DNA of 54,615 nt from NCBI GenBank assembly GCA_965178125.1, contig CBCXTV010000007.1:1-54615 (forward strand), read 5' to 3'. The notes under the pieces are model-generated. The model saw only the letters and a program-made list of their open reading frames with translations. It was not told the origin of the DNA and did not search any database. Origin of the DNA: Bilabrum cf. latius. Lineage: Eukaryota. Positions 882 through 27,353 of this stretch are shown piece after piece (the first letter of the stretch is position 1; every line of letters begins with the position of its first letter). Made by a program: the position numbers and the translations under genes.

Positions 882-2536
882 TCACTCCATCCACAACGGG
901 TCTTTGACCCACACGTATGTCTGGTTGCCAAGAATCCACGCGCGGTCCTCGGCGGACAACGCTTGGAGAGCCGTGTCCCAATGATTCGATGTGCACACCA
1001 TGCGTGTTCGATGAGTGAAAATTTCATACTCGTAGCAGTTCGTGGACGAACTTGCAAGCTGTACGCGGGCCGTCGACGCCTGAAAAAGCTTCCGCTCCGC
1101 ACAACGACCGCGGGACTGACCTCGTCGAACAAGATCAATCCGTCCCGTTCCAGTCAAAATCTTTTAGTGACGGCAACGTCTGGCCCGAACAATTCACTTC
1201 GAACACACGCATGCCTTCGGGCTGTAACGTCCGCGCGAAGGACGTTTTTCCGGTGCACGTTGGACCGTCCAACACTAGGAAGCGGTAACGCTGCATCAAA
1301 ACGCCGTACTGACGGAGCCAACCTTCGCAGACTCCTCCACGTGCGACGTTGCAACGCGAAGTGCGCATCAACCGCGCGGCGGTACGCTTCCACGCGCTCG
1401 CGCGCGCGCGCCCGGTCCATGAGACCAAGGTCGGATAGATACCGAGTCGCACCAATGCCCACGCGCTCAAGAAGCGAACGCGCCGACTCCGTCGACAACT
1501 TTTCGCTCTGGGCCAGCTGCATGACCCACAGCGCGTGCACGGGGTAATCGCGGAACGGCTGCCGGTCGGAATCAGTCCACAGATGACCGACTTTCTCGAC
1601 ACAGCAGTAAAAGTATGGAAGCCACTCGCCGACACCGTTGCGCGACCGGCCCTCGAAACGTTCGGGAGGTCGCACGTGCGGGGAAACGCCACGAAACGAC
1701 GTTGCCCCGTGACTGAGCACGCGAAGGAAACCGGGCACCGCACCTCGGAGAAAGCACACGTGAAAATGCACTTGAGCGCTCCGCTCTCGGTGAAAGGTCT
1801 GCGGACATATCTCCGCACAGATGGCCCGGTGCGTTGCTCCGATGAACTCCCCAAGCGCGTGCGCATAGAACACAAACTCGTGCCAGAGACGCACAACGTC
1901 GGCACGACGCATAAGCAAAAGCGCAGCGTCGTCAACGCACGCGCACGCACGCACCTCCGCATCCGCAAAAAGCCATTCTGCGGAAATGAAGGTCAGAAAA
2001 GTCCTACGACGCGCGCCACATGACTCCTTGTGAGGCATCAGGAGATCGGCGACTGGATCGCGGTCTATGTTGGCCGCCGTCAGGTACAACTGCGACACGG
2101 CCTTCTTCGCTTCCAAAGACAATGAAGCGAACTTGACACGAAATTCACGGAAAGACTTCGCACTCGTCATAGGGACGGCCCCTGCACCGCCACAGGCATC
2201 TCCAAACCTCTCTGGACGGCTCGCCATAGAAACAGACGTGTCCGACCGCTCACAAAAGTCCCGACGCTGCCTGATGGTCCGGTCCTGCATGCTCTGCACC
2301 GTCGGAATATCGCCCAAGGACGCCGCTAAAACCTTCCACTGGGCAAAAGGCTCCTGAGCGGAACTATCAGTTGAGACAGCAGCTCCAGAAGAAGAAGACG
2401 ACGTGGACGGAGTTTGCGCGACGTCGATATATGACGACGCCAGAACACCCTTCGCAGACATACGCCGGCGCTTCAACTTGGGCGACGACGCGACAGCCAC
2501 GTCATCCGACGACGGCGCGGATGACGATACATTCAT
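882..2536 (-). pseudogene. rep: CRESS-like Rep, copy 1, frameshifted in the helicase half (real or sequencing error)
   Basis: HUH part lies in ORF 1154..2728, Walker A in ORF 1135..1968 and motif C in ORF 882..1157. Relative to copies 3/4 there is a 7-nt deletion near 1327 and 1-nt deletions near 1150 and 1100. Confidence 0.8.
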
Positions 2537-2758
2537 CGTCACAGGGACAAGGGAAACACAATGAATGCGAGGGACACACGACACTAGGCCAAACAGCATG
2601 GGATTCCGACACCGTGCACAAGAACTCGAGCAACAACGCATCTGACCATGCCACACCATTCGACTTCTGCCGGGACCGTCGCAGTCCGTCACACGACCCT
2701 GCTCGGATGCCCCTGACAGCCGCCGCAAACGCCTCTGTGGGAACTAGGATATCCGCCA

Positions 2759-2867
2759 CAAGACCCGGGCACGCGTGCCCGAGGGGACCCTTCGGTCCCG
2801 CAAGAGAGACGGGGTCCCACCATGTCCTGACGTTTCATGAACGCCGCAAGACCCGGGCCCGGGTCTT
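2759..2867. promoter_or_regulatory. Palindrome cluster just upstream of rep
   Basis: 16-bp palindrome 2766-2781, hairpin gggacc/ggtccc 2784-2799, 20-bp palindrome 2848-2867, and direct repeat caagacccgggc at 2759 and 2847. Confidence 0.45.
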
Positions 2868-3301
2868 CTGTCCCACATGACACCTTCCACCATCATTGAC
2901 GTCCCACCTATCTGCCCCCTCCCACCATGACATCCCAATCATCCACCAATTACCCGCGTTAACCCGCCACACACCACCTGGGGTTGCATCCTTATCCCAA
3001 CACGTACCCACCCTTCTCTCTAAGAGTGCTTCTTTTCCCGAATGCCTTTGTCTCTCATGGTCAAAATCCGTGTGCAGCATACAACACATATGACTCCCCC
3101 TCGAACTCGTGGGACACCACGTTCCGGAACACAACTCCTCCACCAACACATGCATAACACTGCCGCCTAGTTTGCGCGGGAACCCTTGCAATGAGGTGAA
3201 GTGACGCAGGCGAAATCCAGAAAGGCCTTGTGGCGACCCCTCTTTTCGCGTCTTTTTGGCCCCCAAAGGGGGTGCCACGGCCCCCTTTTTTTACTCGGCA
3301 A

Positions 3302-3359
3302 AAAGCGGTGTCACCATTCTCGGCCCTTAAAAATATTAATATGGCGGCGGCACCGCTTT
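3302..3359. promoter_or_regulatory. Candidate rolling-circle origin: stem-loop with AT-rich loop (also 17995-18052, 32672-32729, 47362-47419)
   Basis: Arms aaagcggtg/caccgcttt enclose AAATATTAA (3331-3339), which fits the CRESS consensus NANTANTAN. It lies upstream of rep with GGTGTC-like repeats nearby. Confidence 0.4.
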
Positions 3360-3732
3360 GGGGACACCATGGTTTTTTTCGAGCAAAATGGCCTGTTTTC
3401 CTTGTAAACCCCTAAAAAACACAGGACGGCGGTGGCACCGCATTTTTTCGAGTGAAATGGCCTTCCCTTTGAGAACTGATTTTCGAAAAAAAAACTCCCT
3501 CTTTGATGGTTTCTGTGCTTTTATTCTTGGTCAATCGTGGTGTTTAAACTGTATGTTGAGAACTTTTTGCCGTATTTCGAGTTCACTTTGGGCATTGAAG
3601 ACTGACATTTTGTAGTTTTCCGCTTCTATGTTGGTTCTTTTTTCTGCGTCAGTTCGTGTGCGGTGTGTTTCGACTGATGGGAATGTGCGTGCTTCCTGCT
3701 GACAATACGGGTGCTCTCCGAGCGGCGCCCGT

Positions 3733-4224
3733 TCAACCCTTCTTGGCTTTTGCCTTCGCTGTACGGGCCCTGACAGCCGTCGCGGAGACTGCGTCTCCGG
3801 AGGAACCGGGTCGCGCCTGCGGAGGATTCTGTCGCATCTGCAGCACTGCGACGAGATCCTCGTCGTTCAACTGACGCGCCTTGCGCTTCAGTCTCGCCTT
3901 TCTTCTCTCTGCGTTTTTGAGGTTCTTCGCGACCTCCTTCTTCAGGTCGCGCGCTCTGTTTTTCTCCGCTCTCATGCGGTCGATGTACTCGAGCAAAGTC
4001 TCAGCGCTCTCTACCATTGCCGGAGGCTTTGGTCGGTCCGATGCCTCCGATTTTGCCGGCGCTGCTTCTACCTCTTGCGCTTCTGCTGTGACCATTACAG
4101 CTTCTTCGCCTTTGTCGATGACGGCATCGACGGACGTGGTCCCAGGCGCACCCCCCGGGGATCGCGGTGGCGAGACGGTTCCGTGATCGCTGTCGGCGTC
4201 GCTGGTGGCGTCCTGGGTCGCCAT
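3733..4224 (-). CDS. 163-aa hypothetical protein with acidic low-complexity N-terminus and basic coiled-coil C-terminus
   Basis: GCCATGG start; protein-like helical segment RAEKNRARDLKKEVAKNLKNAERRKARLKRKARQL; open in all four copies. Confidence 0.75.
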   Translation of the reverse strand: MATQDATSDADSDHGTVSPPRSPGGAPGTTSVDAVIDKGEEAVMVTAEAQEVEAAPAKSEASDRPKPPAMVESAETLLEYIDRMRAEKNRARDLKKEVAKNLKNAERRKARLKRKARQLNDEDLVAVLQMRQNPPQARPGSSGDAVSATAVRARTAKAKAKKG

Positions 4225-6007
4225 GGCGCCGGTGTGCTGGGCTTTGGGACTAACTCGGCTGACGCTGTCGCGGCCGCCGCGCGTCGGGTGGCAATAGGGG
4301 AACGCTCAGCCCGACGTCGGTATGTCATGCGATGCGCGCGTGGAATGTTATGCATTCGCGGGCCATGCAGCAGAGTTGCGAAAACAGCATCGATGTCGAC
4401 AATGCTACGATCCGGGAAGACACTTTGTAAATCATGGAACGATGGCCACTCATGCACATCCTCGGGCACTGTTTGCCACTGCAGTAAGCTGAGAACGCGT
4501 TTTGACACACCTACTTGCGAGCCGTCAAGCCCATTGCTGTGGAATGCTTGATCCCACGTGCGTCGCCGTATGACACGTTCGAATGCCGTCAGCACGGCGT
4601 GGAAAAGCGCATGTGGCCATCGCTCGCGCGGCAGCGCGCGCGCGATGCGGAGCTGATATTCATGTTCTATGGCGCGCTTGTAAATTGCGAAGACGTGCGT
4701 GTCGCAAGGCTGGAGCGCCCACGTCATTTTCGCGGGGATTAAATGGTAGTGGAAATTGAGTCGAGATGCCGTATGCCACACGGCGCGACCCAGGTGAGCT
4801 CGATACGTGTCCGCGCTAACAGTAAAATGATGCGTGTCTCGGAATGCATGGACGGCATCCGCGAGCACGCGCAGCGCGCGACACATTAATTTGGTGGTCA
4901 TCCACCCCTTTGCGCCTCGCAAGAGAAGCACATTCGGAGGGAGCGCGAGGCGGAGCGCGTCAAATTGCTCGCGACTCACAATGCGGTCTGAGAAGAGGAA
5001 TATGGTCGGCAAGTGCGGTTGGATGTCGCTGTTGTTGGCGATGCAGACGATTTGTGTGATCATGCTCCGCATCTCACGTTTCGGGGTCGGTTGACGCAAG
5101 CCTCCCGCTGCGCGAACTCGGCGTCGGGCCTCTTCCACAAGAAAACCTGCCTGTGAAACTGCCGTCAGCCGGATGCTCGTTTCGTCCATGTTCACGTGGA
5201 CCGGGCACTTGTCCGGCGGCGCGAAGGCCCGCAAGAAGTTGCACCATTTCCACACCGCACGTGCCTCGAAATTCGTTTGGGTCGGCTTTTTGCTCAAATT
5301 TGGGGGGCGTTTTCCGGGTCCAGAGTGTATTTGTTCTATATGTGAGGACCCCGAAACCAGGGCCGCTATATGGCCCCGTTTTGGGTTTCCTTCGTGAAAC
5401 GTCGGACGTGTTTTTGCCACTGTCCGGTGGCCTTTAGGCGTCGTCGATCCACACATTCTGCATCGAGTCGAGGCACGGCTCCGAGCGACACCTGCCAGCG
5501 TCGCCGCCAGCGTCGGCACCACTGTCGGATGCTTTGTCTTCTTCTAGATGCCTCGGGTCCTGCTCCTGCGGATCGGTACCCGTGAGCCTGCGTAATCTCG
5601 AGAAAAACGTTCGTCGTCGGCGCGAGTGTATTGGCGAAGTTCTGCTCGTGAACCCACCTGTGCAGATTATGTTCTCGCAAGAACCGCGATGTCATCGTGG
5701 CAGCTTGTAGACGCTCTGGCGTCCATGGACGTTGTTGCTCTCGGAGCACACCGTCTTCCGTAAGAGTAGCGTGCCATGCACGAAGATTTGCGATCGCGTC
5801 GTCAAGAGTCGGAACCGGTGCATTCCGCCACTTCTGACGCAGATAAGCTTCTGCGGTGACGACGTCGACGATGACCGCCAAAAAGCGGGCGTGCCCCTCC
5901 AGTTGTGCTATGCGAGCTGTTTGCCGCCGGTGTTGCTCTCTGGCACGACGAACTGCTTGCTGAAGCGTCCGCATCGCGTTCGCGAGCGACGCGATTGTCG
6001 CTTCCAT
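4095..6007 (-). CDS. pogo/Tigger-family (DDE_1) DD35D transposase; two exons (6007-5432, 5264-4095), ~581 aa predicted
   Basis: Catalytic motifs VNMDETS, KGWMT, SADTYRAH and LIPAKMTWALQPCD, with 35 residues between D2 and D3. The upstream ORF ends in a CENP-B-HTH-like WCRRWRRRW. A phase-0 AAG|GC…GAG|G intron (5431-5265) joins RRRLK to ARAVWKW in frame. Start context GCCATGG. Confidence 0.88.
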
Positions 6008-6434
6008 GGCCCGAGTATGGTGGTACGATTCGATCGTACACAGCGAAGGAGGATGTGTCTCGAGTCGAGAGCAATGCGGGGCGAGCCACTGATGGGAAGT
6101 TTCATGTCAAGGCCCATTTCCGACAGTGCGCTCGATCCTGAGCCCCCTTTCGAACATGCGCCCGTGCATTGGTGCATGGTATCGGTGTGTCGCGTGCACT
6201 TTTGTGCTGTCGTTGCTCGGCCGGTCGTTCGTGTGCAAATGTCCGCGCGCCCCTGCCGTGCGCGGTAGACTTGCGGGTGATTTCACTTTCCCGGAATTGA
6301 TTGCCGGAGCGATTATGCCTGATCGATTCTGCGAGCATGCTGAGATGGAAATGAAGACGGCGACGGGCTCGTTTCATCATTTCGATATGGTGGAGATGGG
6401 CACAACGAAACTGTCGTTTCGCCAACGTCACCAG

Positions 6435-6792
6435 TGGGCGGGCGGGCGGGCAAGCGGGTGGGCTGGCGGGCGGTCGGGCGTGCGGGCGGGCGGGCGTGCG
6501 GGCGGGCGGGCGGGCGGGTGGGCGGGCGGGCGGGCGGGCGGGCGCGCGGGCGGGCGGGCGGGCGGGCGGGCGGGCGGGCGCTCGGGTGGGCGGGCGGGCG
6601 CCCGGACGGGCGGGCGGTCGCCTGCGCGGGCGGGCGGGCGGACGAGCGGGCGGACGGGCGGGCGGGTGGGCGGGCGCGGGCGGGCGGGCGGGCGGGCCCT
6701 TGCGGGTGGGCGGTCGGACGCTGGTGGGCGGGCGGGCCGGCGTGCGCGGGCGCGCGGGCGCTGGCGGGCGGGCGGGCGGGTCCGGGCGGGCG
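6435..6792 (+). repeat. (GGGC)n tract 2, the purest (also ~21129-21487, ~35810-36172, ~50498-50847)
   Basis: Long runs of gggc; repeat number varies between copies. Confidence 0.97.
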
Positions 6793-7019
6793 AGCACGTT
6801 TACCGCCAAACATAAGGAACCCTTGATTGCGCAACGGAGATACTGACGACATGAGACCACTTTATACGCGGGACGGCTGAAGGCTCGTTTCCCGGCTGAA
6901 GATGGAGCCGTGATGGTTTCTTCCTCGGCTGAAAATCTCGAAAGCATGTGCATTGACTTACAAGCCTTGGCATCCCAGATCGTGTCACACCTTACACACG
7001 ACCCACACGGTTCCGGATG

Positions 7020-8480
7020 CGCCCTGGGGTGGTCGGGGCTGCGGGACGGGAGACCGGTGGGAGGGAGTGAGAAGTATGTGGATGGGGGGTGGCTTGGTCG
7101 TGCGCGTGGGTGTGTCGGGGCGGGTGGGTGGGGATGAACGTGGTGGGACGAGGAAAGGGTTAGGACGGATGGTCGGGCGTGTGGTTGCCTGTGGATGATG
7201 TCGGAGCGCGTCACTTGCGCTCGATCCAAGTCGGTTTCGCGCGCCTGAGTTGCGTAGCCGTGCTGGCGACGCACCGTCCGGTGAGAGCTTGTTCCGTCCT
7301 CGCGCCTTGTTGCCGTCGACGGCTGCCTCGGCGGCAAAGGTGCCGGCCGGCGACTCCAGTGCGCGTGCAACCCGTTCGCGTTCCGCAGTCGTGGTCCAAT
7401 GCCGTCACTCGCAGCGTATCGGAGCGCGACCTCAATATGCTAGCGTGCTTGTCGCGAGCTCGCACACACACATTCGCTGGCCGTGTCATGGTTTGCGCAG
7501 CATGGTCGGCTGTTACGCAAATCGGTTCTTTGTGCGGTCTTCGTCGCACTGACATGACAACGAATGCACCCTGACTACTTGCGGTTCTCGACATAACCCG
7601 ACAGTATTCATGCTGCGACCGGAACATGCGAGACCTAAAAATAACCGACAAGCCGGATGATTGTGGAGCGCCGGGTTCGGTTCTCGTGCGGTCGCTTATC
7701 CTATAGTGGTATGGAAGATTTGAGCGTTTTGCATCACCGGGCTTTTCCCGTGCCTGGTGCAAATCGGCTGCTCGAAACGACTCTGGGCTGGCGGTGGGGA
7801 GGCCCGGATAGTGGCGGGATGATGCTGGTGGGGGGGGGTGTCGATGGAGTGTGCGTGGGGTCAGTCGGGGCGGGAGGCGGGGCTGGTGATGGTAAGGGGG
7901 GGAGATGGTGGAGCGGACAAATCGCGCGGATGGTCACCTGCACAAAATGTCGGAACGCATGAGATGTGACTGGTCCATTACGCGTTCGCATTCCCATGTT
8001 ATCTAGGTCTGCTGATTGCGCAGCATCATGCGGGACAAGAGTCTCTCTGAAGGCCTCGCCGTCGTCGACGGTTGTCACTGCGGCAGCGGCACCGGCTGCC
8101 GGCTCCAGCGCGCGTACGCCACGTTCGCGTCCAGCGGCTGCCGCTGGATGCTGTTCCGCGCGGCGTACACGAAGTCAGCCTTTGTATGCTAGCGTGCTAC
8201 CCGGCAACCCTCACACGTGCGCACGCGTTCGCATCGTGCGGACACGGTTGGCCGCAAGATAGTCCGGCCTTCGTCGAGCCACTGTTGCTTCGACATGAAA
8301 ACGATGCCATTTTGGAGTGTGGCGCGGACTGGCGTGACGTCATTGTCGAATGCTATCATCGCAACACTCATGTGCCGAAATTGTTTTGATAGGTTCCTGA
8401 ATTGTGGAGTCCCCTGTTTCGCCTCCGTCGGGTTGCGCACCCAGTAGCGGTACCCGAAGCTCTGGCCGATCTGTCTCAAA
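7020..8480. repeat. Old internal tandem duplication (~750-bp period) of the 3' end of the GT-like gene
   Basis: tatgctagcgtgct at 7436 and 8185. Aligned translations: YAARNSIQRQPLDANVAYARWSRQPVPLP vs YAASDGIGPRLRNANGLHAHWSRRPAPLP, and YRYWVRNPT vs YHYRISDRT (YHYWIRDPT in copy 4). Confidence 0.8.
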
Positions 8481-10177
8481 CGGCGCTGCTCGCGCTTGGT
8501 GCGCGGCGCCCCTGACGAGTCGGCACCGGCGGTTTCGACGGTGGGATCGGCGGCAGAAGGCTCGTTCCGACCCGACCGTCCGCCGCCTTTTCCCTTGCGG
8601 CCGCGGCCTTTCGTCGTGGACGACTGCGCCTCGCCTGTGATGTGATGGACGCCCGCCCTCCCCCCGTTTTTTTTCAGCGCTATAGCACGGACGTTTCAAC
8701 TCCTTAGCCCCAAAAGAAAAAGGAAAATCGGCCACCTTCGTCGCGCGTCGGCGGCCGCAGCGCCCGCGGATCGGCGAACCAAGCGTCCGCGTCCGCTGGG
8801 CCTACGGCCCACGCTGGCATGGGCTCCGGGAACGCCCAATGGCTGAGCCATCGGTGCGCGGCCGGCGTAGGCGCGTCGGCCAGCGTCGCGAGACGTTGGC
8901 ACTTGCCCTTCTTCTCGAAGCTCGCGAGGAACTTCTGCCGTTCGCGGGGGTCTTGACTGCGGCGCGTTCCTGGGCACACCCAACGTTCTGTCCACGCGGA
9001 CGGGCGCACCCAACCTGGTCCATGTGCAGTGTCGCAATGGGACACATGCTCCACGCAGGCGCCGATTCCGGGCACGACGTAGCACGCTCGGGCCGCTCGG
9101 CCCTTGGTTCCAAGGAACCATTTCAAGTCCAGGTCCCAGTGCCCTCGGGTTCCCCCGAGTTCATCGGGTTTCTTCATGGACTCCATCATCGTCGTCGCGC
9201 CGCTCTTCGTCACCATGATGAACTGCGATCCGAAGCCAAACTGTGCCTCATCGCGCACGTTCTGTCCCGGCTGGCCGCACGCCCACCCGCTCCAAACGAT
9301 ATCACCGCAGCTCGCACGATGCGCTTGCGTTGCTATGGCGCACACATCTTCTAGAACTTGTGGGCACGCGATGTGGCGTTCCGTCGGCCGCAACTGGATC
9401 GCGACGAAGTGGCCCGCCTTCGATATGGGTGCGACAACTTCGAGAAATGGAAAGAAGATGCGTACTCATGCACGTGCACGTCGCGTCAGTTCGTCGGCGA
9501 CTGTGCGATCATCACAGGTGGCGAAAGGCTCATGCCTGTCCTTTCTTCACGCTATCATGCCTACTGACCCTTCCCCCTTCAAAAAATACGTGCTCATCCG
9601 CCTGTTTCAGCCGTCGGTCCGGCTGCGGTTGCTGAGCCACCGCAGGGGGCTGGAGGCTCCTGCCTGCGTCGCGCATCGCCTGCAGCTCCAGCGCCACGCT
9701 TCCGCGTGGTCTCGGCGCCGGCGCCGCGTCCGGCTCGAAGCGAAAATCCTCTTCGAAGCACAAAAAGAGGACGTCATCGGGCCAGCGCTCGTCGAGCGCC
9801 AGCGGGATGAAGTAGTCCTGAGCATACGACATGGGGTCACTGGCATGTACTATTGCGCGTATACGCCACCGCTGGCACGACTGTTGTCGGCGACAATGGC
9901 ACATCACGTCAAATGCTGATACCAAACACGATCCACACTGTGATGACTCCATGCTTTCCTAATGCGTGCTACCATCCTCCCACCAGCTTCGCACTGTCGT
10001 CGACCGATCGCATCCTGGTTGCAACGCGGTCGTCCGCGCGATGCAAACCAGTGGTTGCAGCGGCAGTAGCTTCTCCGCCAGGTATGTCCCGGCGTCGTTT
10101 GGGTCGGCGCCGAAGTGCGTCACAATCAGCGCCTGGAATAAGAAATGGTCCGATTGCTCAAAAAGCCAATGAGACAT
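8075..10177 (-). CDS. Multi-exon gene, possibly GT-A/GT25-like glycosyltransferase; predicted exons 9817-9602, 9417-8736, 8634-8423, 8179-8075; 5' exon(s) uncertain
   Basis: Phase-compatible AG|GC or AG|GT donors and AG|G acceptors link separate ORF pieces. Motifs FLCFEEDFRF, GDIVWSGW, GSQFIMVTKSGA and HWDLDL resemble the order of GT25 motifs (judged by eye). Confidence 0.5.
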
Positions 10178-10386
10178 GTGACGAGCTTATGCACGGGACG
10201 GCGGTAGGCTCGTTTCCCGGCATGTAACGGGGCGGCAAGGGCTCGTTCCCCGGTTCACAATTGCGAAAGTTCGTGCATTGACCGACATGTCCTGTCCCGT
10301 GAAATCACGCCACACATCACAGCTCCTCGAAATGGCGTAAGACCCAATGCTCGGCACAAAAGAATGCGTGTCATGTTACGACTGCT

Positions 10387-10761
10387 TCATGGGAGCACCA
10401 CGACTGGCCGACCGTTCACCATGTGGACGAACCTCTGCGGCTCGAAGTCCGCATAGGTACTTCTGTTGCGCGTGAGATGACCGATCTCATCACGCGCTGA
10501 CAATCCGGCATCGACAAGAGTGTCATCGAAATCGATGACGAGACTATCGCTCGCGCTGGCTCTGCTTCCTGCGGCGCGACTTCCGGCCGGTGTCGGCGCT
10601 CCGCGACGCTCCTGCAGCGTGGCCTCCCCGCTGCGCTGGAGCTCCGTCGCGTGCGCTGCGTGGACCGGCAGCCATGTGCCGCCGATGCCTGCGTCGGGCT
10701 GACGCTTCTTCCTCTTCGGCATCGGTGTGCGAAGACGCGCGTGGGCCCGGACGGAATCCAT
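10387..10761 (-). CDS. Small hypothetical protein (124 aa) with NLS-like PKRKKR; also at 25079..25453 and 39769..40143
   Basis: Open in three copies and co-oriented with the other genes; could instead be a 5' exon of the GT-like gene. Confidence 0.45.
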   Translation of the reverse strand: MDSVRAHARLRTPMPKRKKRQPDAGIGGTWLPVHAAHATELQRSGEATLQERRGAPTPAGSRAAGSRASASDSLVIDFDDTLVDAGLSARDEIGHLTRNRSTYADFEPQRFVHMVNGRPVVVLP

Positions 10762-11140
10762 CCCAGTAAAGAAATGACGCGATAAGCGCGGGCGGACATG
10801 GATTCCGCAGCGTTCACATACGTCAGCACATGTTATGTCACGACATGTATATGTGCAATCTGCATCTTACGCATACACCAGCATTTCCGACATGTTTCAT
10901 GCTGTGAAACAAAACCAATCGCCAAATACCCGCAACAAATGAAAATTGGAAATTTCAACGCTCATATGCATAAAATGACAATGTGCATCATCCTCGAGTT
11001 GAACAGCTTGCCCGCTGCAGGAGTCGTGAAGGCGCCGACGGCATCCACGCCATCGCACGCGCCCGCGCGCCGGACCCCTCTGGACATGACGCCGAACCAC
11101 GGCGAAAGGCTCGTTTAGTTCGACGCGATCACTCACCGCA

Positions 11141-11530
11141 TCAGCCGCCGCGGCGCTGCCACACAGGCGCCGGGGGTGAGCGCGATCGACCGCTGGTCGA
11201 GTCCGCGCTGCGGCGCGCCGCGCGCCGCGCCTCGCCAGCGCGGCGCTCGTCGTTCCACAACTCGCCGCTCGGGGGGACGGTGCCATCTCCGGCACGTCCA
11301 GCCACGAAGGGAAGAAACTCCGCGCCGTTGATGCGCGCATGCAACGTGAGCACACCCGGCGGGCGCTCGACGTTAACGCGCCACGTTGTCCGCACCACCA
11401 GTCTGGTGCTTCCGTCGTCCTGCCGCTCACCGAGACAAGTCACGGAATCGACAGTAAGGGCACCACTCTGGGTGCCGACTTGCCGCTGCAATAGGGCTGT
11501 GACCCAACGCGCGTGGGTATCGCTCGCCAT
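11141..11530 (-). CDS. Small hypothetical protein (129 aa from MASDTH), beta-rich with Arg/Ser tail; also at 25832..26221, frameshifted at ~40522..40913
   Basis: ATGG start, protein-like composition and an RSRSP tail; first ORF inside the putative element end. Confidence 0.45.
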   Translation of the reverse strand: MASDTHARWVTALLQRQVGTQSGALTVDSVTCLGERQDDGSTRLVVRTTWRVNVERPPGVLTLHARINGAEFLPFVAGRAGDGTVPPSGELWNDERRAGEARRAARRSADSTSGRSRSPPAPVWQRRGG

Positions 11531-12624
11531 GTGGGCGACAACGCATGCGCACAAACGGGATTTTCCTGAAAGCCATGTATGAGCGCGCACGTAAAAACGC
11601 GTGAATGCGCGGAACCGAATTTCTACACGCTCGCCTGCATCAAGCATCCAAAATTTCCTCATACGAACTTCGAACCGTGTTTTACGTCGCTCGCAAAATG
11701 AAACGCGACAGCACCATATCAGCATGTCCCCTAATCAATGCTTCGCCCCGCGGTTTCAGAACCTGCCATCCATGCGCATGAATCGGAGACCAAACTTACA
11801 CAGCAAAGAAACAAGGGGGTTAGAAAACAGCGGGAGAAAGCTCAAAACGGCGAAAAATGCGGGACGCACAAACGATGGGAAGGGGGGGGCGAACAAAAGA
11901 AATATCCGTAGGAACACGTCATGTGGTAAAAAAAAAAAAAAATCACTCACAATCCCAAGGGGCCTACATAGGCTCATACATGTTGACACACTGTGCAACA
12001 GCATGATTTTGTCAACCATTATATGACGACATCTGCGAGTTGAGGGCAAAATCGTTTATGCGTTGGATGCAACATTCATGATCACACCGCCGAATATTCC
12101 GAAAATTGCCCTCGTTGTCAGCGACTCTCGGTGGAACGCACGCGTCACCGATGGCCGACTCGTAACAAGAAAATATGAGACATGCTTGCGATCACGTCGG
12201 CGTTTGCTTGGGCTGTGTGCGTACGGAGATTCCCAAACTAGGCTCACGTTAGCCCGAACGACATGATTACGGTTGCAATGACCCAGCGCTATACACGTGC
12301 AACACGTCCTGGGATGTTTCATCACACTGTCGCATAATCAGGCCCATCATGCGAGCCAAAGACACCCCAGGCCTCAAGAATGAGACGGCGAGGACCTGTG
12401 CGACGAGCAAAAGGACCGAGATTTGGGAAAAGAGCGGGGAGGGGTGGGAAGGGGGATAGGCACGAAAAAAAGGGGATCTCCTTCAGGGACGGACAGGGGA
12501 GGAGCGAGACGGGGGATGGGAAAGGGGGACCCGAATTGGGGCCGCAGGAAGGTGACGAATCCGCGGCCCCGACTTCAGGACCGCGGGGCTGGTTTTGAGA
12601 CCGTTTCCGGCCCAGGAAACTGGA

Positions 12625-12667
12625 CACGAAAAAGTGAAGCCCGACAGTCGGGCTTCACTTTTTCGTG
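12625..12667. repeat. Perfect 43-bp palindrome; putative TIR-TIR (circle) junction
   Basis: cacgaaaaagtgaagcccgac-a-gtcgggcttcactttttcgtg: 21-bp arms around a 1-nt centre, followed by ~40 bp of imperfect inverted similarity. The palindrome is certain; its role is inferred. Confidence 0.85.
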
Positions 12668-13024
12668 CTCGCTTTTCGGGGGCGAAAACAGCACCGAAAT
12701 CGAGGCCGTTTTTTGGCGCATGTGGCAGAAATCGAGCAAGCAATGTACACATGATTCCACCTTTGGAAGGACTTACCACCTTCAGTGGCTTCCGTCATAA
12801 TGTTTCAAGTCATAATCAACGAGATCCAGGACGCGACGCCACAACGCATGTGGCCACAACCGACACTTGGCCCCAAACAAACTGTGCTCGAACACCCTCA
12901 AGACCAAACGGCATCCAACTGACCGGAACACGAAATACACGGACCGCTATTTAAGGATCGTCCTGCATAACGAGACAAGCAAACTTACATGACGGACATG
13001 AAACATATCTCGATGCGTCTAACT

Positions 13025-13288
13025 GGCGGAGGGGCGGGCGGACAGGCGAACGGGCGAACAGACGACTGACCGGATGGGCAGCCGGGCGGGCTGGCGGGTG
13101 AGCGGCAGCGGGTGGGCGGGCGAGCGGCCGGATGTACGCGGACAAACGGGCGGGCGATCGAGCGCGGGCGGGCGCGCGGGCGGGCGGGCGGACGGGCGCG
13201 GGCGGGCGGACACGACGGGCGGGCGGGCGCAGGCGGGCAGGCGGGGCGCGGGCGGTCGGGCAGGCGGGCGGGCAGGCAGGCGGGCGGG
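13025..13288 (+). repeat. Degenerate (GGGC)n tract 3 (also ~27711-27975, ~42400-42663)
   Basis: Visible gggc/ggca repeats ~360 bp inside the palindromic junction. Confidence 0.95.
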
Positions 13289-13478
13289 ACGAAATACGAA
13301 AACGGGAAAAAACACGAACGCGCACGGGCTTTTCAAAACACGGCCACAGCCCGAGCCTCGACTGTGATCGTCCGCGCGGGGAGTCCCTGGCGCCGTTCAC
13401 GCCGCCCACTTGAAACGCGCCACGACGGCGGGCGCTGAGGCGACCACGGAGCGGCTCCCCGAACGGCGACAGGCTCGT

Positions 13479-14189
13479 TTACGGGCAAGTGTCGTGCGCC
13501 CCGTCCTCACACCCTGACGAGTCTGTGTCCATCACGGTCGTGATGGGATCCTGTAGTTCCATCGGATGTGTGCACTCCTCAAAATAACCACGCAAATGCT
13601 CCGCTGACTCAGCAAAGACAAGGCCCTCCACCATCTTCTGATTGCCTTGCCCCAGAACAAAAGAGCGAGTGGAGTCTGCGACACAATGCCCAGCATCCAC
13701 GATTCGAACGTTAAGACACACATGAACGTCGACAACGCCCTTCTGGCACATGTTCGACAAGTATGTCTTCGCAGACGTGAAGTCGGAACAGCCGCACCGT
13801 CGGCAAACGATGCGGCCTCGACCACACAAGGTGCGATGCTTCAAATCCGTCAACAATCTATACAATCGTCTGTGCGCCCGCTGCTGACCAGACACTGTAG
13901 TAAGCTGGTCATACGCAACCATCTCATCGCACATGCCGCACATCAAGCTATCCAGACGTAAAAAACAATCCGCAATGTCAGGAATGTGCATACCAGCCGG
14001 CGCCAACACGACTTCGCCAGGCTTTGCGAAAACTAACTTGGCACACCAGTCCCGCTTCTCAGTTGCCACAAGCACGACACCATCCCGGACGTCAAGCTTC
14101 ACTTCCATCACACGCGAATCCGCCTGGCACATCGAGTTCCGCGAGCGTTTCTGCGTCTCTGTCGCCGCTGCATCCGAACTGCAAGCCAT
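13479..14189 (-). CDS. Cys-rich hypothetical protein (~236 aa), possibly zinc-binding
   Basis: Likely start MACSSD in a GCCATGG context; CxxC pairs CGMC and CRRCGC; the only indel between copies is 3 nt and in frame. Confidence 0.65.
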   Translation of the reverse strand: MACSSDAAATETQKRSRNSMCQADSRVMEVKLDVRDGVVLVATEKRDWCAKLVFAKPGEVVLAPAGMHIPDIADCFLRLDSLMCGMCDEMVAYDQLTTVSGQQRAHRRLYRLLTDLKHRTLCGRGRIVCRRCGCSDFTSAKTYLSNMCQKGVVDVHVCLNVRIVDAGHCVADSTRSFVLGQGNQKMVEGLVFAESAEHLRGYFEECTHPMELQDPITTVMDTDSSGCEDGAHDTCP

Positions 14190-15560
14190 GGCACGGGCCG
14201 GACTGGCGAAGAAGGAAACGCGACACGACAGGATGCGAGGTTGGGCCTCCGAAACAGGCAATCTGCCAGCCAAAACGACTGTGCCGTCATGGTCCATTCG
14301 AGTGTAAGGCGTAATCGCATATCACTCAATACCCTTGCAATCACCCTGCATCAACGCATCACGCCTACAATTTTCGTACTGGTTGCGGTCCGATGATGCC
14401 CGACACGCAAACGCTGCGTGCCACAGAGCAATGGATCAATCGCTTGCAGATTCGTCTTCAGCCGACAGCGATGTGAGGGCGAAACTACCCATGCGAAGCC
14501 TCATGTAAAACACAAGCTTTCTACAATGTGATCCGTCATACATACAGGCTCGAACACGCGCCAGTACGCTCCTCCATGGAATCGATGAATAGCGCACTCT
14601 CGTCCGCAGTCTTCGCCCGGCGGACGATCGGCATGCGGATGCATTTGCACATTTATAATGCACAGAGATCCCTGCGCTGATTCTTTGGGAACTGAGATTG
14701 AATGTCATAGCAACTATGAACGCTAAACTGGCAACTTTCCTAATCTCGAAATGACGACGGCGACAGGCTCATTTCGTCATTTCAGCATTGCGCGGATAAC
14801 AATGGCAGAAATCTCATGGCGCAAATATATCGAATGGGACCACGGGCGGGCGGACTGGCACGCGAACAGGCAGGCGGCTAGGACGTGCAGGCGGGCAAAT
14901 GGGCGGGCGTACGGGCGGGCGAGCGGACGAACGGGCGGGCGGGCAGACGGACGGCCGGGCGGGCGGATGCGCGGGCGGGCACGCTGGCGCGCACACGAGC
15001 GAGCGGACGGGTGCGCGGGCGGGCGAACGGACGGGCGGGCGGACGGGCGGGCGGGCGAAGGCGGGACGGGCGAACGGACGGGCGCGCGGGCAGGGACGGG
15101 CGGACGCGCGCCGGCGGCCGCGCGGGCGCGGCGAACGCGCAAACGAGCGCGGGCGGCCGAGCGGGCGCGGTCGGGCGGGCGCGAGCGAGTGGGGCGAGAA
15201 CCCCATGACGAACCCACAGCACGCAATTTCAAACGTCGACCGCACGCCTCGCAAGCAAGCTGTTACGACTGTCACCGCGAAGACGGACCTATACACACAG
15301 TAAAACAACCACAACCGAGATCCATCCCTGCATTCCCTGTACATCCGCAGAGACGAACACACTATCGAGACGGAACGTGCCACACGCACAAGACAGCGGG
15401 GATGGGTAGCAGACTCCTGATCCGTTCTGCCCGACCCGTAGGGCAGTGGGATGAGTAAGGACTCGGGTTCCCATTCAGCCCTGCATGTGGATGGAGCGAC
15501 AACATATTGCTGAAGACATGACTGCAATGTTGTTCATTGCATGCGAAAGGCATATTGTCG

Positions 15561-17228
15561 TCACTCCATCCACAACGGGTCTTTGACCCACACGTATGTC
15601 TGGTTGCCAAGAATCCACGCGCGGTCCTCGGCGGACAACGCTTGGAGAGCCGTGTCCCAATGATTCGATGTGCACACCATGCGTGTTCGATGAGTGAAAA
15701 TTTCATACTCGTAGCAGTTCGTGGACGAACTTGCAAGCTGTACGCGGGCCGTCGACGCCTGAAAAAGCTTCCGCTCCGCCACAACGACCGCGGGACTGAC
15801 CTCGTCGAACAAGATCAATCCGTCCCGTTCCCAGTCAAAATCTTTTAGTGACGGCAACGTCTGGCCCGAAACAATTCACTTCGAACACACGCATGCCTTC
15901 GGGCTGTAACGTCCGCGCGAAGGACGTTTTTCCGGTGCACGTTGGACCGTCCAACACTAGGGAAGCGGTAACGCTGCATCAAAACGCCGTATTGACGGAG
16001 CCAACCTTCGACGTCCGGCAGACTCCTCCACGTGCGACGTTGCAACGCGAAGTGCGCATCAACCGCGCGGCGGTACGCTTCCACGCGCTCGCGCGCGCGC
16101 GCCCGGTCCATGAGACCAAGGGTCGGATAGATACCGAGTCGCACCAATGCCCACGCGCTCAAGAAGCGAACGCGCCGACTCCGTCGACAACTTTTCGCTC
16201 TGGGCCAGCTGCATGACCCACAGCGCGTGCACGGGGTAATCGCGGAACGGCTGCCGGTCGGAATCAGTCCACAGATGACCGACTTTCTCGACACAGCAGT
16301 AAAAGTATGGAAGCCACTCGCCGACACCGTTGCGCGACCGGCCCTCGAAACGTTCGGGAGGTCGCACGTGCGGGGAAACGCCACGAAACGACGTTGCCCC
16401 GTGACTGAGCACGCGAAGGAAACCGGGCACCGCACCTCGGAGAAAGCACACGTGAAAATGCACTTGAGCGCTCCCGCTCTCGGTGAAAGGTCTGCGGACA
16501 TATCTCCGCACAGATGGCCCGGTGCGTTGCTCCGATGAACTCCCCAAGCGCGTGCGCATAGAACACCAAACGTCGTGCCAGAGACGCACAACGTCGGCAC
16601 GACGCATAAGCAAAAGCGCAGCGTCGTCAACGCACGCGCACGGCACGCACCTCCGCATCCGCAAAAAGCCATTCTGCGGAAATGAAGGTCAGAAAAGTCC
16701 TACGACGCGCGCCACATGACTCCTTGTGAGGCATCAGGAGATCGGCGACTGGATCGCGGTCTATGTTGGCCGCCGTCAGGTACAACTGCGACACGGCCTT
16801 CTTCGCTTCCAAAGACAATGAAGCGAACTTGACACGAAATTCACGGAAAGACTTCGCACTCGTCAGGGACGGCCCCTGCACCGCCACAGGCATCTCCAAA
16901 CCTCTCTGGACGGCTCGCATAGAAACAGACGTGTCCGACCGCTCAAAAAGTCCCGACGCTGCCTGATGGTCCGGTCCTGCATGCTCTGCACCGTCGGAAT
17001 ATCGCCCAAGGACGCCGCTAAAACCTTCCACTGGGCAAAAGGCTCCTGAGCGGAACTATCAGTTGAGACAGCAGCTCCAGAAGAAGAAGACGACGTGGAC
17101 GGAGTTTGCGCGACGTCGATATATGACGACGCCAGAACACCCTTCGCAGACATACGCCGGCGCTTCAACTTGGGCGACGACGCGACAGCCACGTCATCCG
17201 ACGACGGCGCGGATGACGATACATTCAT
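15561..17228 (-). pseudogene. rep: CRESS-like Rep, copy 2, multiple frameshifts
   Basis: Rep motifs are split over ORFs 15561..15857, 15845..16672, 16059..16664 and 16627..17031 by small indels. Confidence 0.8.
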
Positions 17229-18426
17229 CGTCACAGGGACAAGGGAAACACAATGAATGCGAGGGACACACGACACTAGGCCAAACAGCATGGGATTCCG
17301 ACACCGTGCACAAGAACTCGAGCAACAACGCATCTGACCATGCCACACCATTCGACTTCTGCCGGGACCGTCGCAGTCCGTCACACGACCCTGCTCGGAT
17401 GCCCCTGACAGCCGCCGCAAACGCCTCTGTGGGAACTAGGATATCCGCCACAAGACCCGGGCACGCGTGCCCGAGGGGACCCTTCGGTCCCGCAAGAGAG
17501 ACGGGGTCCCACCATGTCCTGACGTTTCATGAACGCCGCAAGACCCGGGCCCGGGTCTTCTGTCCCACATGACACCTTCCACCATCATTGACGTCCCACC
17601 TATCTGCCCCCTCCCACCATGACATCCCAATCATCCACCAATTACCCGCGTTAACCCGCCACACACCACCTGGGGTTGCATCCTTATCCCAACACGTACC
17701 CACCCTTCTCTCTAAGAGTGCTTCTTTTCCCGAATGCCTTTGTCTCTCATGGTCAAAATCCGTGTGCAGCATACAACACATATGACTCCCCCTCGAACTC
17801 GTGGGACACCACGTTCCGGAACACAACTCCTCCACCAACACATGCATAACACTGCCGCCTAGTTTGCGCGGGAACCCTTGCAATGAGGTGAAATCGACGC
17901 AGGCGAAATCCAGAAAGGCCTTGTGGCGACCCCTCTTTTCGCGTCTTTTTGGCCCCCAAAGGGGGTGCCACGGCCCCCTTTTTTTACTCGGCAAAAAGCG
18001 GTGTCACCATTCTCGGCCCTTAAAAATATTAATATGGCGGCGGCACCGCTTTGGGGACACCATGGTTTTTTTCGAGCAAAATGGCCTGTTTTCCTTGTAA
18101 ACCCCTAAAAAACACAGGACGGCGGTGGCACCGCATTTTTTCGAGTGAAATGGCCTTCCCTTTGAGAACTGATTTTCGAAAAAAAAAACTCCCTCTTTGA
18201 TGGTTTCTGTGCTTTTATTCTTGGTCAATCGTGGTGTTTAAACTGTATGTTGAGAACTTTTTGCCGTATTTCGAGTTCACTTTGGGCATTGAAGACTGAC
18301 ATTTTGTAGTTTTCCGCTTCTATGTTGGTTCTTTTTTCTGCGTCAGTTCGTGTGCGGTGTGTTTCGACTGATGGGAATGTGCGTGCTTCCTGCTGACAAT
18401 ACGGGTGCTCTCCGAGCGGCGCCCGT

Positions 18427-18918
18427 TCAACCCTTCTTGGCTTTTGCCTTCGCTGTACGGGCCCTGACAGCCGTCGCGGAGACTGCGTCTCCGGAGGAAC
18501 CGGGTCGCGCCTGCGGAGGATTCTGTCGCATCTGCAGCACTGCGACGAGATCCTCGTCGTTCAACTGACGCGCCTTGCGCTTCAGTCTCGCCTTTCTTCT
18601 CTCTGCGTTTTTGAGGTTCTTCGCGACCTCCTTCTTCAGGTCGCGCGCTCTGTTTTTCTCCGCTCTCATGCGGTCGATGTACTCGAGCAAAGTCTCAGCG
18701 CTCTCTACCATTGCCGGAGGCTTTGGTCGGTCCGATGCCTCCGATTTTGCCGGCGCTGCTTCTACCTCTTGCGCTTCTGCTGTGACCATTACAGCTTCTT
18801 CGCCTTTGTCGATGACGGCATCGACGGACGTGGTCCCAGGCGCACCCCCCGGGGATCGCGGTGGCGAGACGGTTCCGTGATCGCTGTCGGCGTCGCTGGT
18901 GGCGTCCTGGGTCGCCAT
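18427..18918 (-). CDS. Basic coiled-coil hypothetical protein, copy 2
   Basis: Identical translation to 3733..4224. Confidence 0.75.
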   Translation of the reverse strand: MATQDATSDADSDHGTVSPPRSPGGAPGTTSVDAVIDKGEEAVMVTAEAQEVEAAPAKSEASDRPKPPAMVESAETLLEYIDRMRAEKNRARDLKKEVAKNLKNAERRKARLKRKARQLNDEDLVAVLQMRQNPPQARPGSSGDAVSATAVRARTAKAKAKKG

Positions 18919-20701
18919 GGCGCCGGTGTGCTGGGCTTTGGGACTAACTCGGCTGACGCTGTCGCGGCCGCCGCGCGTCGGGTGGCAATAGGGGAACGCT
19001 CAGCCCGACGTCGGTATGTCATGCGATGCGCGCGTGGAATGTTATGCATTCGCGGGCCATGCAGCAGAGTTGCGAAAACAGCATCGATGTCGACAATGCT
19101 ACGATCCGGGAAGACACTTTGTAAATCATGGAACGATGGCCACTCATGCACATCCTCGGGCACTGTTTGCCACTGCAGTAAGCTGAGAACGCGTTTTGAC
19201 ACACCTACTTGCGAGCCGTCAAGCCCATTGCTGTGGAATGCTTGATCCCACGTGCGTCGCCGTATGACACGTTCGAATGCCGTCAGCACGGCGTGGAAAA
19301 GCGCATGTGGCCATCGCTCGCGCGGCAGCGCGCGCGCGATGCGGAGCTGATATTCATGTTCTATGGCGCGCTTGTAAATTGCGAAGACGTGCGTGTCGCA
19401 AGGCTGGAGCGCCCACGTCATTTTCGCGGGGATTAAATGGTAGTGGAAATTGAGTCGAGATGCCGTATGCCACACGGCGCGACCCAGGTGAGCTCGATAC
19501 GTGTCCGCGCTAACAGTAAAATGATGCGTGTCTCGGAATGCATGGACGGCATCCGCGAGCACGCGCAGCGCGCGACACATTAATTTGGTGGTCATCCACC
19601 CCTTTGCGCCTCGCAAGAGAAGCACATTCGGAGGGAGCGCGAGGCGGAGCGCGTCAAATTGCTCGCGACTCACAATGCGGTCTGAGAAGAGGAATATGGT
19701 CGGCAAGTGCGGTTGGATGTCGCTGTTGTTGGCGATGCAGACGATTTGTGTGATCATGCTCCGCATCTCACGTTTCGGGGTCGGTTGACGCAAGCCTCCC
19801 GCTGCGCGAACTCGGCGTCGGGCCTCTTCCACAAGAAAACCTGCCTGTGAAACTGCCGTCAGCCGGATGCTCGTTTCGTCCATGTTCACGTGGACCGGGC
19901 ACTTGTCCGGCGGCGCGAAGGCCCGCAAGAAGTTGCACCATTTCCACACCGCACGTGCCTCGAAATTCGTTTGGGTCGGCTTTTTGCTCAAATTTGGGGG
20001 GCGTTTTCCGGGTCCAGAGTGTATTTGTTCTATATGTGAGGACCCCGAAACCAGGGCCGCTATATGGCCCCGTTTTGGGTTTCCTTCGTGAAACGTCGGA
20101 CGTGTTTTTGCCACTGTCCGGTGGCCTTTAGGCGTCGTCGATCCACACATTCTGCATCGAGTCGAGGCACGGCTCCGAGCGACACCTGCCAGCGTCGCCG
20201 CCAGCGTCGGCACCACTGTCGGATGCTTTGTCTTCTTCTAGATGCCTCGGGTCCTGCTCCTGCGGATCGGTACCCGTGAGCCTGCGTAATCTCGAGAAAA
20301 ACGTTCGTCGTCGGCGCGAGTGTATTGGCGAAGTTCTGCTCGTGAACCCACCTGTGCAGATTATGTTCTCGCAAGAACCGCGATGTCATCGTGGCAGCTT
20401 GTAGACGCTCTGGCGTCCATGGACGTTGTTGCTCTCGGAGCACACCGTCTTCCGTAAGAGTAGCGTGCCATGCACGAAGATTTGCGATCGCGTCGTCAAG
20501 AGTCGGAACCGGTGCATTCCGCCACTTCTGACGCAGATAAGCTTCTGCGGTGACGACGTCGACGATGACCGCCAAAAAGCGGGCGTGCCCCTCCAGTTGT
20601 GCTATGCGAGCTGTTTGCCGCCGGTGTTGCTCTCTGGCACGACGAACTGCTTGCTGAAGCGTCCGCATCGCGTTCGCGAGCGACGCGATTGTCGCTTCCA
20701 T
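18789..20701 (-). CDS. pogo-like DD35D transposase, copy 2 (exons 20701-20126, 19958-18789)
   Basis: Both ORF translations are identical to copy 1. Confidence 0.88.
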
Positions 20702-22767
20702 GGCCCGAGTATGGTGGTACGATTCGATCGTACACAGCGAAGGAGGATGTGTCTCGAGTCGAGAGCAATGCGGGGCGAGCCACTGATGGGAAGTTTCATG
20801 TCAAGGCCCATTTCCGACAGTGCGCTCGATCCTGAGCCCCCTTTCGAACATGCGCCCGTGCATTGGTGCATGGTATCGGTGTGTCGCGTGCACTTTTGTG
20901 CTGTCGTTGCTCGGCCGGTCGTTCGTGTGCAAATGTCCGCGCGCCCCTGCCGTGCGCGGTAGACTTGCGGGTGATTTCACTTTCCCGGAATTGATTGCCG
21001 GAGCGATTATGCCTGATCGATTCTGCGAGCATGCTGAGATGGAAATGAAGACGGCGACGGGCTCGTTTCATCATTTCGATATGGTGGAGATGGGCACAAC
21101 GAAACTGTCGTTTCGCCAACGTCACCAGTGGGCGGGCGGGCGGGCAAGCGGGTGGGCTGGCGGGCGGTCGGGCGTGCGGGCGGGCGGGCGTGCGGGCGGG
21201 CGGGCGGGCGGGTGGGCGGGCGGGCGGGCGGGCGGGCGCGCGGGCGGGCGGGCGGGCGGGCGGGCGGGCGGGCGCTCGGGTGGGCGGGCGGGCGCCCGGA
21301 CGGGCGGGCGGTCGCCTGCGCGGGCGGGCGGGCGGACGAGCGGGCGGACGGGCGGGCGGGTGGGCGGGCGCGGGCGGGCGGGCGGGCGGGTCCTTGCGGG
21401 TGGGCGGTCGGACGCTGGTGGGCGGGCGGGCCGGCGTGCGCGGGCGCGCGGGCGCTGGCGGGCGGGCGGGCGGGTCCGGGCGGGCGAGCACGTTTACCGC
21501 CAAACATAACGAACCCTTGATTGCGCAACGGAGATACTGACGACATGAGACCACTTTATACGCGGGACGGCTGAAGGCTCGTTTCCCGGCTGAAGATGGA
21601 GCCGTGATGGTTTCTTCCTCGGCTGAAAATCTCGAAAGCATGTGCATTGACTTACAAGCCTTGGCATCCCAGATCGTGTCACACCTTACACACGACCCAC
21701 ACGGTTCCGGATGCGCCCTGGGGTGGTCGGGGCTGCGGGACGGGAGACCGGTGGGAGGGAGTGAGAAGTATGTGGATGGGGGGTGGCTTGGTCGTGCGCG
21801 TGGGTGTGTCGGGGCGGGTGGGTGGGGATGAACGTGGTGGGACGAGGAAAGGGTTAGGACGGATGGTCGGGCGTGTGGTTGCCTGTGGATGATGTCGGAG
21901 CGCGTCACTTGCGCTCGATCCAAGTCGGTTTCGCGCGCCTGAGTTGCGTAGCCGTGCTGGCGACGCACCGTCCGGTGAGCTTGTTCCGTCCTCGCGCCTT
22001 GTTGCCGTCGACGGCTGCCTCGGCGGCAAAGGTGCCGGCCGGCGACTCCAGTGCGCGTGCAACCCGTTCGCGTTCCGCAGTCGTGGTCCAATGCCGTCAC
22101 TCGCAGCGTATCGGAGCGCGACCTCAATATGCTAGCGTGCTTGTCGCGAGCTCGCACACACACATTCGCTGGCCGTGTCATGGTTTGCGCAGCATGGTCG
22201 GCTGTTACGCAAATCGGTTCTTTGTGCGGTCTTCGTCGCACTGACATGACAACGAATGCACCCTGACTACTTGCGGTTCTCGACATAACCCGACAGTATT
22301 CATGCTGCGACCGGAACATGCGAGACCTAAAAATAACCGACAAGCCGGATGATTGTGGAGCGCCGGGTTCGGTTCTCGTGCGGTCGCTTATCCTATAGTG
22401 GTATGGAAGATTTGAGCGTTTTGCATCACCGGGCTTTTCCCGTGCCTGGTGCAAATCGGCTGCTCGAAACGACTCTGGGCTGGCGGTGGGGAGGCCCGGA
22501 TAGTGGCGGGATGATGCTGGTGGGGGGGGTGTCGATGGAGTGTGCGTGGGGTCAGTCGGGGCGGGAGGCGGGGCTGGTGATGGTAAGGGGGGGGAGATGG
22601 TGGAGCGGACAAATCGCGCGGATGGTCACCTGCACAAAATGTCGGAACGCATGAGATGTGACTGGTCCATTACGCGTTCGCATTTCCCATGTTATCTAGG
22701 TCTGCTGATTGCGCAGCATCATGCGGGACAAGAGTCTCTCTGAAGGCCTCGCCGTCGTCGACGGTTG

Positions 22768-27310: not shown

Positions 27311-27353
27311 CACGAAAAAGTGAAGCCCGACAGTCGGGCTTCACTTTTTCGTG
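27311..27353. repeat. Perfect 43-bp palindrome; putative TIR-TIR junction (copy 2)
   Basis: Identical to 12625-12667. Confidence 0.85.

Follow-up and report, generated by a model that had tools for sequence, protein, structure and literature searches.

The window (the whole stretch of 54,615 nt that was analysed) consists of units repeated head to tail in the same direction, a partial one, two that are full and a last partial one, and the array runs off both window ends. A perfect 43-bp palindrome recurs once per unit, and the one recognisable gene of the unit codes for a pogo-type transposase. Our tentative reading, to which we give a probability of about 0.45, is that the right end of one large pogo-like copy became linked to the left end of the following one when an excised copy joined to itself, and that the joined form was then amplified. 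We infer the parts of this reading, namely the palindrome arms as ends, a 3-nt stagger, a circle and a mode of amplification, from the letters of the joint and the content of the units.

Array structure and the unit junctions

All units lie on the + strand. The first, partial unit (u0, positions 1 to 12645) begins at unit offset 2034 and is 99.6% identical to the first full unit (u1, 12646 to 27331; 14,686 bp), which is a putative complete element. The second full unit (u2, 27332 to 42019; 14,688 bp) is 99.2% identical to u1; the alignment of the two has 40 gap openings, and many of the differences are single-base indels. The last, partial unit (u3, 42020 to 54615) is a mosaic with 97% and lower identity. 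Its first ~3.5 kb are identical to u2, after which it diverges gradually to ~6%, and its last ~700 bp are 92% identical; over ~8 kb it differs from the other units by 3-8%. One stretch of u3 (53011 to 53902, no strand) is unalignable, with 892 bp standing in place of 897 bp in u1 (23646 to 24542), and no nucleotide or six-frame protein similarity was found between these 892 bp and the 897 bp of the other units (8954 to 9850 in u0 and 38336 to 39232 in u2). The boundaries of the replacement are sharp, its flanks are both 92-93% identical, and the swapped stretches are near-equal in length. In u1, the 897-bp stretch takes in that portion of ORF P0086 for which the database contains a relative at 74% identity. 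A last unit that is both diverged and mosaic suggests that the right edge of the array is near. Such a unit would fit an event in which a circle or concatemer recombined with a resident copy that had diverged, and ordinary divergence of edge repeats also explains it. If a circle or concatemer did recombine with a resident copy, the array is predicted to end ~2.1 kb past the window, with a full end plus TA.

The palindrome at the first junction (12625 to 12667, centre 12646) reads CACGAAAAAGTGAAGCCCGAC-A-GTCGGGCTTCACTTTTTCGTG and is perfect and of odd length (21 + 1 + 21 nt). Identical copies, likewise assigned to no strand, lie at 27311 to 27353 and 41999 to 42041, with centre-to-centre distances of 14,686 and 14,688 bp. 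In a scan of the window, the 25-nt palindrome core matched three times on the + strand with no mismatches (12634, 27320 and 42008) and three times on the - strand with one mismatch, which is the centre; none were expected by chance (100 shuffles). The statement of the sequence-only reading that a perfect palindrome occurs once per unit in three identical copies is thereby borne out, and the central "mismatch" to which it drew attention is merely the unpaired middle base common to every odd palindrome. The 23-mer that it had named as the terminal inverted repeat (TIR) matched only the three junctions when up to 3 mismatches were allowed across the window (0 mismatches on the + strand, 1 on the - strand), and the 14-mer end motif matched the same three junctions only with up to 2 mismatches. 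No degenerate or extra half-palindromes were found elsewhere in the window at up to 3 mismatches, and matches to a 12-mer with 2 mismatches were at chance level (13 found against 7 expected). The longest perfect hairpin-type arm in the window is 21 nt, against a maximum of 12 nt when the window was simulated 30 times with a first-order Markov model. The ORF spanning the first junction (12384 to 12797), used as a protein query for other junctions or solitary ends, gave 0 matches.

Weaker inverted symmetry continues outside the perfect arms. At positions 22-60 from the centre, the left flank (12586 to 12624) and its mirror on the right (12668 to 12706) share 21 of 39 in-register matches, where the null mean is 10.1 of 39 and the observed value is reached by 0.04% of 14,647 test windows. 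Symmetry is thus 100% to 21 nt from the centre, ~54% to ~60 nt and at background beyond ~70 nt, and this step-like drop points to a TIR pattern, in which the tip is conserved best, rather than to a decaying long palindrome. As single-stranded DNA, the junction region forms a strong fold (-51.8 kcal/mol, z = -6.65). A small hairpin stands on either side of the palindrome (12560 to 12730), to the left GTTTCC...GGAAAC and to the right TTTTCG-GGGG-CGAAAA, and both belong to a strongly structured region of ~170 nt. A subterminal AGTCGGGGC motif had 6 matches against 1.3 expected; they are confined to one side of the junction, and for that reason the motif was not built upon.

The unit contains a second perfect palindrome of 20 bp (10 + 10, no spacer), found at 2848 to 2867, 17540 to 17559 and 46906 to 46925, with a copy in u2 (32216 to 32234) that lacks one base. 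The sign of the unit's AT skew switches at this second palindrome, which is ~1.2 kb downstream of the transposase stop. Each unit also has three long (GGGC)n-like microsatellite tracts on the + strand (13086 to 13288, 14901 to 15181 and 21130 to 21486 in u1) of up to ~88 copies. These tracts are G-quadruplex-prone by composition and give rise to spurious long ORFs rich in proline, alanine and arginine, for example at 20799 to 22625 (-).

Transposase gene and remaining unit content

From one unit, 147 stop-to-stop ORFs of at least 70 aa were scanned against Pfam, and one of them, at 18792 to 20237 (-), reached the cut-off. The match is to DDE_1 (PF03184; 22.8 bits against a cut-off of 22, E 7.5e-5), a domain of the pogo/Tigger/CENP-B transposase family. 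Being just above the cut-off, the match is thin alone and is supported by the annotation of its relatives: 72 of the 80 database homologues are annotated PF03184, with DDE_1 scores of 22.1-36.4 bits among the relatives. Identity is 85% for one homologue and mostly 30-42% for the others. In a 30-sequence alignment, N-x-D-E-T, D245 and Q-P-x-D281 are invariant, which gives the triad D120/D245/D281 (P0001 numbering); the last two D are 35 residues apart (D-D-35-D), inside the pogo range of DD29-56D.

The N-terminal region of the ~660-aa relatives maps to a second ORF just upstream, 20063 to 20800 (-), which aligns from residue 1 of a 661-aa relative. Between the two ORFs lies a 167-nt GC...AG stretch (20125 to 19959), a predicted intron, and splicing it out joins K|A exactly as in the uninterrupted relative P0065. 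An intron and a shortage of further long ORFs speak for a eukaryote, and the GC...AG|G form of the intron may be reminiscent of dinoflagellates. The predicted gene of u1 (18789 to 20701, -) thus comprises exon 1 (20701 to 20126), the intron and exon 2 (19958 to 18792) plus the stop, and would encode 581 aa when spliced. In u0 (4095 to 6007, -), as in u1, both ORFs are open. The copy in u2 (33469 to 35382, -) has a 1-nt length difference in exon 1, which is a frameshift or a read error, and that in u3 (48154 to 50067, -) has diverged and is broken: it shows 7 gap columns, and 13 stops interrupt the frame of the DDE ORF. Given its ATG, the N-terminal alignment from residue 1 and a predicted intron with a matching splice joint, the gene looks functional in u0 and u1.

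No Pfam match was found in the N-terminal region (P0083) or in the N-termini of the long relatives. An AlphaFold (AF2) model of this region is all-helical with a mean pLDDT of 65; it had 0 matches to PDB folds at E<=0.001 using Foldseek, and the family profile had 0 matches to PDB sequences. A run of 69 codons (18493 to 18699, -), in a different frame and downstream of the transposase stop, matches the C-terminal part (residues 410-478) of the relative P0015 at 49% identity, which suggests either one more conserved exon or a second, small ORF.

Three related loci (L001 3036-3764, L002 58-819 and L003 799-1568; 26-34% identity) are on short contigs of 2.2-4.0 kb in MAGs, in bins assigned to Kiritimatiellae, Actinomycetota and Wenzhouxiangellaceae. 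Mis-binned eukaryotic DNA seems likelier than bacterial genes as the source of these relatives. Neither terminal inverted repeats nor the half-palindrome were found at the three loci; the contigs, being short and lacking terminal repeats, are uninformative on the ends of the family.

Selection was assessed from synonymous versus non-synonymous single-codon changes between u1-type sequence and the diverged u3-type sequence, for 49 ORFs in the diverged part of u3. The two transposase ORFs show a synonymous excess, 17:12 (p=1.4e-4) and 10:10 (p=0.014). Among the remaining 47 ORFs (P0086 included) none reached p<0.02, and three at nominal p 0.027-0.046 were lost after correction for 49 tests. The non-coding DNA on both sides of the transposase is co-linear over at least 8.6 kb between the u1-type and the u3-type. 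The synonymous excess in the transposase implies that the two lineages diverged under selection on the transposase, with at least 8.6 kb of non-coding DNA travelling along. As read from these alignments, selection together with co-linear flanks would fit a large mobile element better than decay in place.

About 12 kb of the unit is without recognised function and evolves neutrally. The 280 aa of ORF P0084 (13482 to 14321, -) resemble a protein in composition and include two C-x2-C pairs. Just two database relatives were found, at 97% and 72% identity, and neither Pfam nor the Atlas gave a match; the ORF falls where u3 and u2 do not differ. P0084 may be an orphan gene carried by the element, or not a gene. 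ORF P0086 has 11 weak matches and no Pfam family.

Several other identities of the unit were considered and rejected. An rDNA or other structured RNA unit is ruled out by 0 Rfam matches and 0 tRNAs in the unit. The junction of a hairpin-telomere replicon (a poxvirus or N15-like concatemer) needs units of alternating orientation, and all units here are direct. Site-specific recombinase targets of the lox or att type consist of inverted binding sites around a 6-8-bp spacer; the spacer here is only 1-3 nt, and there is no recombinase family among the 147 ORFs.

Possible element ends and proposed origin of the joint

The best inverted-repeat pair across the unit is the palindrome itself. Closer inverted repeats flanking the transposase are no better than 70-85% complementary. 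The idea that the unit contains a smaller pogo element bounded by TIRs of its own was rejected, since the best pair for it (16571 to 16599 and 20616 to 20644) has one arm in the N-terminal coding region of the transposase. It is plausible that the palindrome arms are the TIRs of the element, ~21 bp perfect and ~60 bp imperfect, beginning 5'-CAGT. Ends of Tc1 and pogo elements usually begin CAG(T), and the arms read CAGT/CTGT outward from the centre. The first palindrome is accordingly read as a right-end TIR minus its last 3 nt, abutting an intact left-end TIR that begins CAGT; on the premise that the arms are ends, two full ends would be 3 nt longer than the joint. The arms were seen solely abutted. 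No element-host boundary lies inside the window, and no solitary end TA-CAGTCGGG... beside unique DNA was seen in it, both array edges being outside. A search of PMC7386202 for the string CAG gave 0 hits.

On these observations we infer that the unit is one unusually large pogo-like transposon. Its length of 14,686 or 14,688 bp is outside the 1.2-5.2 kb given for the pogo elements surveyed in PMC7386202, for which the last spacing is given as DD29-56D; the length range is descriptive, not mechanistic. The proposal of the sequence-only reading that 23-bp TIRs are joined end to end in this array is accordingly upheld in part. The presence of a pogo-type transposase in the unit and the arms as the sole good spanning inverted repeat support it, and the 14.7 kb size and the lack of a half-palindrome elsewhere weigh against it.

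A less probable account, which we consider possible and on the whole doubtful, is that the palindrome is internal to a tandemly duplicated segment, as a cruciform-prone site, an origin or a terminator-like hairpin, and is not made of transposon ends. The transposase would then be a passenger, domesticated or decayed, whose own ends have been lost. A unit three times longer than any pogo element surveyed in PMC7386202 and the ~12 kb of it that carry no recognisable transposon function would be natural under this account, as would the failure to see a TA-flanked end in the window or at the three related loci. Any point in a tandem array may be named the junction, and edge units of ordinary arrays diverge too. 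The strong fold with its small flanking hairpins suits a structural site, and the 20-bp perfect palindrome shows that palindromes are not unique in this unit. What such an account leaves unexplained is the CAGT/CTGT start beside a pogo-type transposase as the only recognisable gene, a start that by our own estimate ~1/32 of random odd palindromes would have. The step in symmetry from 100% to ~54% at 21 nt suits TIRs, and beside the transposase gene there are no other TIR candidates. Purifying selection on the transposase between copy lineages whose flanks are co-linear also speaks against this account, as does the absence of Rfam and tRNA features.

Should the arms be ends, the lack of a TA at the joint excludes simple insertion of copies side by side. 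The sequence-only reading had remarked that independent adjacent insertions would read CTG-TA-CAG and that this is not seen, and indeed TA between the arms is absent at 3/3 junctions. Under the circle reading, an excised copy would carry 3-nt 3' overhangs, CTG at both ends, and these would anneal end to end to form a circle with no TA target duplication. The central T:T mismatch would be fixed as A/T, giving either the observed joint or its CTG twin. The joined form could then be amplified in the chromosome to a head-to-tail array, either through rolling-circle replication or through homologous recombination involving a resident copy, and unequal exchange would follow amplification. The canonical footprints of Sleeping Beauty are given as cag/ctg in PMC5224488, as the sequence-only reading had stated. 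A 3-nt stagger is known from Sleeping Beauty rather than from this family; for a pogo element, the Passer paper gives only 0-4-bp footprints. Arrays with intact TIRs are argued in PMC5932611 to be short-lived, which counts against the circle and array reading.

The same letters could be reached with no circle. Two same-orientation insertions at one TA would give end-TA-end, a perfect even palindrome, from which a 5-bp deletion of the centre (TA + 3 nt) followed by unequal exchange would produce the array. Removing 5 nt from such a joint yields the exact observed sequence, and after expansion identical junctions are expected, matching the three seen. According to PMC5932611, double insertion is the usual route to tandem P and hobo dimers and has been raised for Bari1, and 24 of 36 hobo dimers bear junction deletions. 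The insertion of two copies into one TA is described there for P, hobo and R1, with none given in its available text for Tc1, mariner or pogo elements. The deletion would also have to preserve a perfect palindrome, and many small deletions are possible, whereas a circle predicts just this joint and its CTG twin. The circle is favoured because it predicts the exact joint, and we hold double insertion with deletion to be improbable. For the circle origin claimed in the sequence-only reading, the centre is what annealed 3-nt CTG overhangs would give, and double insertion with a 5-bp deletion gives the same sequence.

The joined ends may further be conceived as a working form, in which the element, much as bacterial insertion sequences do with their circles and (IS)2 dimers, would cycle regularly via a circle or tandem dimer and the joint would be the preferred substrate of the transposase. 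This is a speculative extension that we rate as very improbable. If true, it would explain how near-intact ends, an open transposase and purifying selection coexist with an array, and it would move a eukaryotic cut-and-paste family toward a circle-based cycle. Least probable of all is a non-chromosomal array, that is, a circular episome, eccDNA or rolling-circle concatemer that a long-read assembler rendered as repeats: u0 to u2 are 99.2-99.6% identical with differences that are often single-base indels, as from read errors, but u3, with 3-8% difference over ~8 kb and its 892-bp non-homologous replacement, is unlike a copy of one circle, and the unit had no match in plasmid and phage collections.

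Comparison with known systems

The transposase of the unit shares with those of the pogo superfamily (Passer, Tigger, pogoR and Lemi, as well as Mover and Fot; PMC7386202) the DDE_1 domain, a DDD triad and an in-range spacing. In that source, the Mover family has no DNA-binding domain detectable by hmmscan, as is the case for the transposase here; N-terminal DNA-binding domains in pogo are of the helix-turn-helix type (CENP-B_N, HTH_Tnp_Tc5, psq and BrkDBD). Insertion of pogo elements duplicates a TA, or else TAA/TAAA. The superfamily differs from the present unit in length, at 1.2-5.2 kb (PMC7386202) against 14.7 kb. The haptophyte element Luffy is 2.6 kb.

Abutted inverted repeats a few bp apart are found in the circles and (IS)2 tandem dimers of bacterial elements such as IS911 and IS30 and in the translocatable units of IS26, where they derive from a circular or dimeric form. 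In bacterial insertion sequences, copy-out-paste-in transposition cannot proceed without such junctions, which are highly reactive intermediates, whereas the junction here has no sign of activity. In PMC9587614, a circular intermediate with abutted TIRs is hypothesised for multimers of KolobokP, a eukaryotic DDD/E element; neighbouring KolobokP copies share a long terminal direct repeat, whereas here there are abutted inverted ends alone.

Free excised circles are described in PMC5224488 and PMC2803484 for Tc1, Tc3, Minos, Sleeping Beauty K248A and the hobo/Hermes episomes. They resemble the present joint in having the ends of the two inverted repeats linked, with a gain or loss of zero to few nt. 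Their junctions, as described there, are heterogeneous and they are mostly seen as by-products, whereas one junction type is fixed in the array here. We note that the circles of Tc1 were reportedly the subject of a paper by Radice and Emmons in 1993.

The closest counterpart is Bari1, a Tc1-like element of Drosophila melanogaster with head-to-tail arrays at h39 (~80 copies) and on the X (6 copies), as described in PMC8834629 and PMC5932611. In both systems, whole elements of the IS630-Tc1-mariner group would stand in direct tandem with junctions that have no TSD. Given arms that are ends, the junction features of the Bari1 type are present in the window: 3/3 junctions are identical, have no TA and are 3 nt short. 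In the Bari1 array each copy lacks its first 2 nt, compared with 3 nt at the joint here, and the perfect 43-bp palindrome is kept here, unlike in Bari1. Bari1 is a 1.7 kb Tc1-like element of a fly, and the present unit is 14.7 kb, pogo-like (DDE_1, D-D-35-D) and from what is probably a GC-rich protist. The 5' edge of the Bari1 array is a partial element; the edges of the present array are outside the window. A circle followed by rolling-circle replication has been proposed for Bari1 (PMC8834629, PMC5932611), and the same origin is proposed here. Bari1 is the one well-studied case in the Tc1/mariner group, for which PMC5932611 still considers two routes, a circle copied by rolling-circle replication and double insertion followed by deletion, and a 2022 review (PMC8834629), in its available text, knows of no example comparable to the Bari1 arrays.

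No published description of the present array or element was found in the literature searched. Such arrays address the question of how whole DNA transposons become satellite-like tandem arrays. If our reading is true, the array would be a second case that is independent of Bari1 and belongs to another superfamily and a distant host, and a joint equal to the predicted annealing product of 3-nt overhangs would amount to a sequence-level test of the circle model. The nearly intact ends would make the joint a natural substrate on which to study whether cleavage of abutted ends is possible, and the size range of pogo-like elements would be extended ~3x. Judged by the systems compared here, the array would be a second example of the rare Bari1-like arrangement rather than a new principle.
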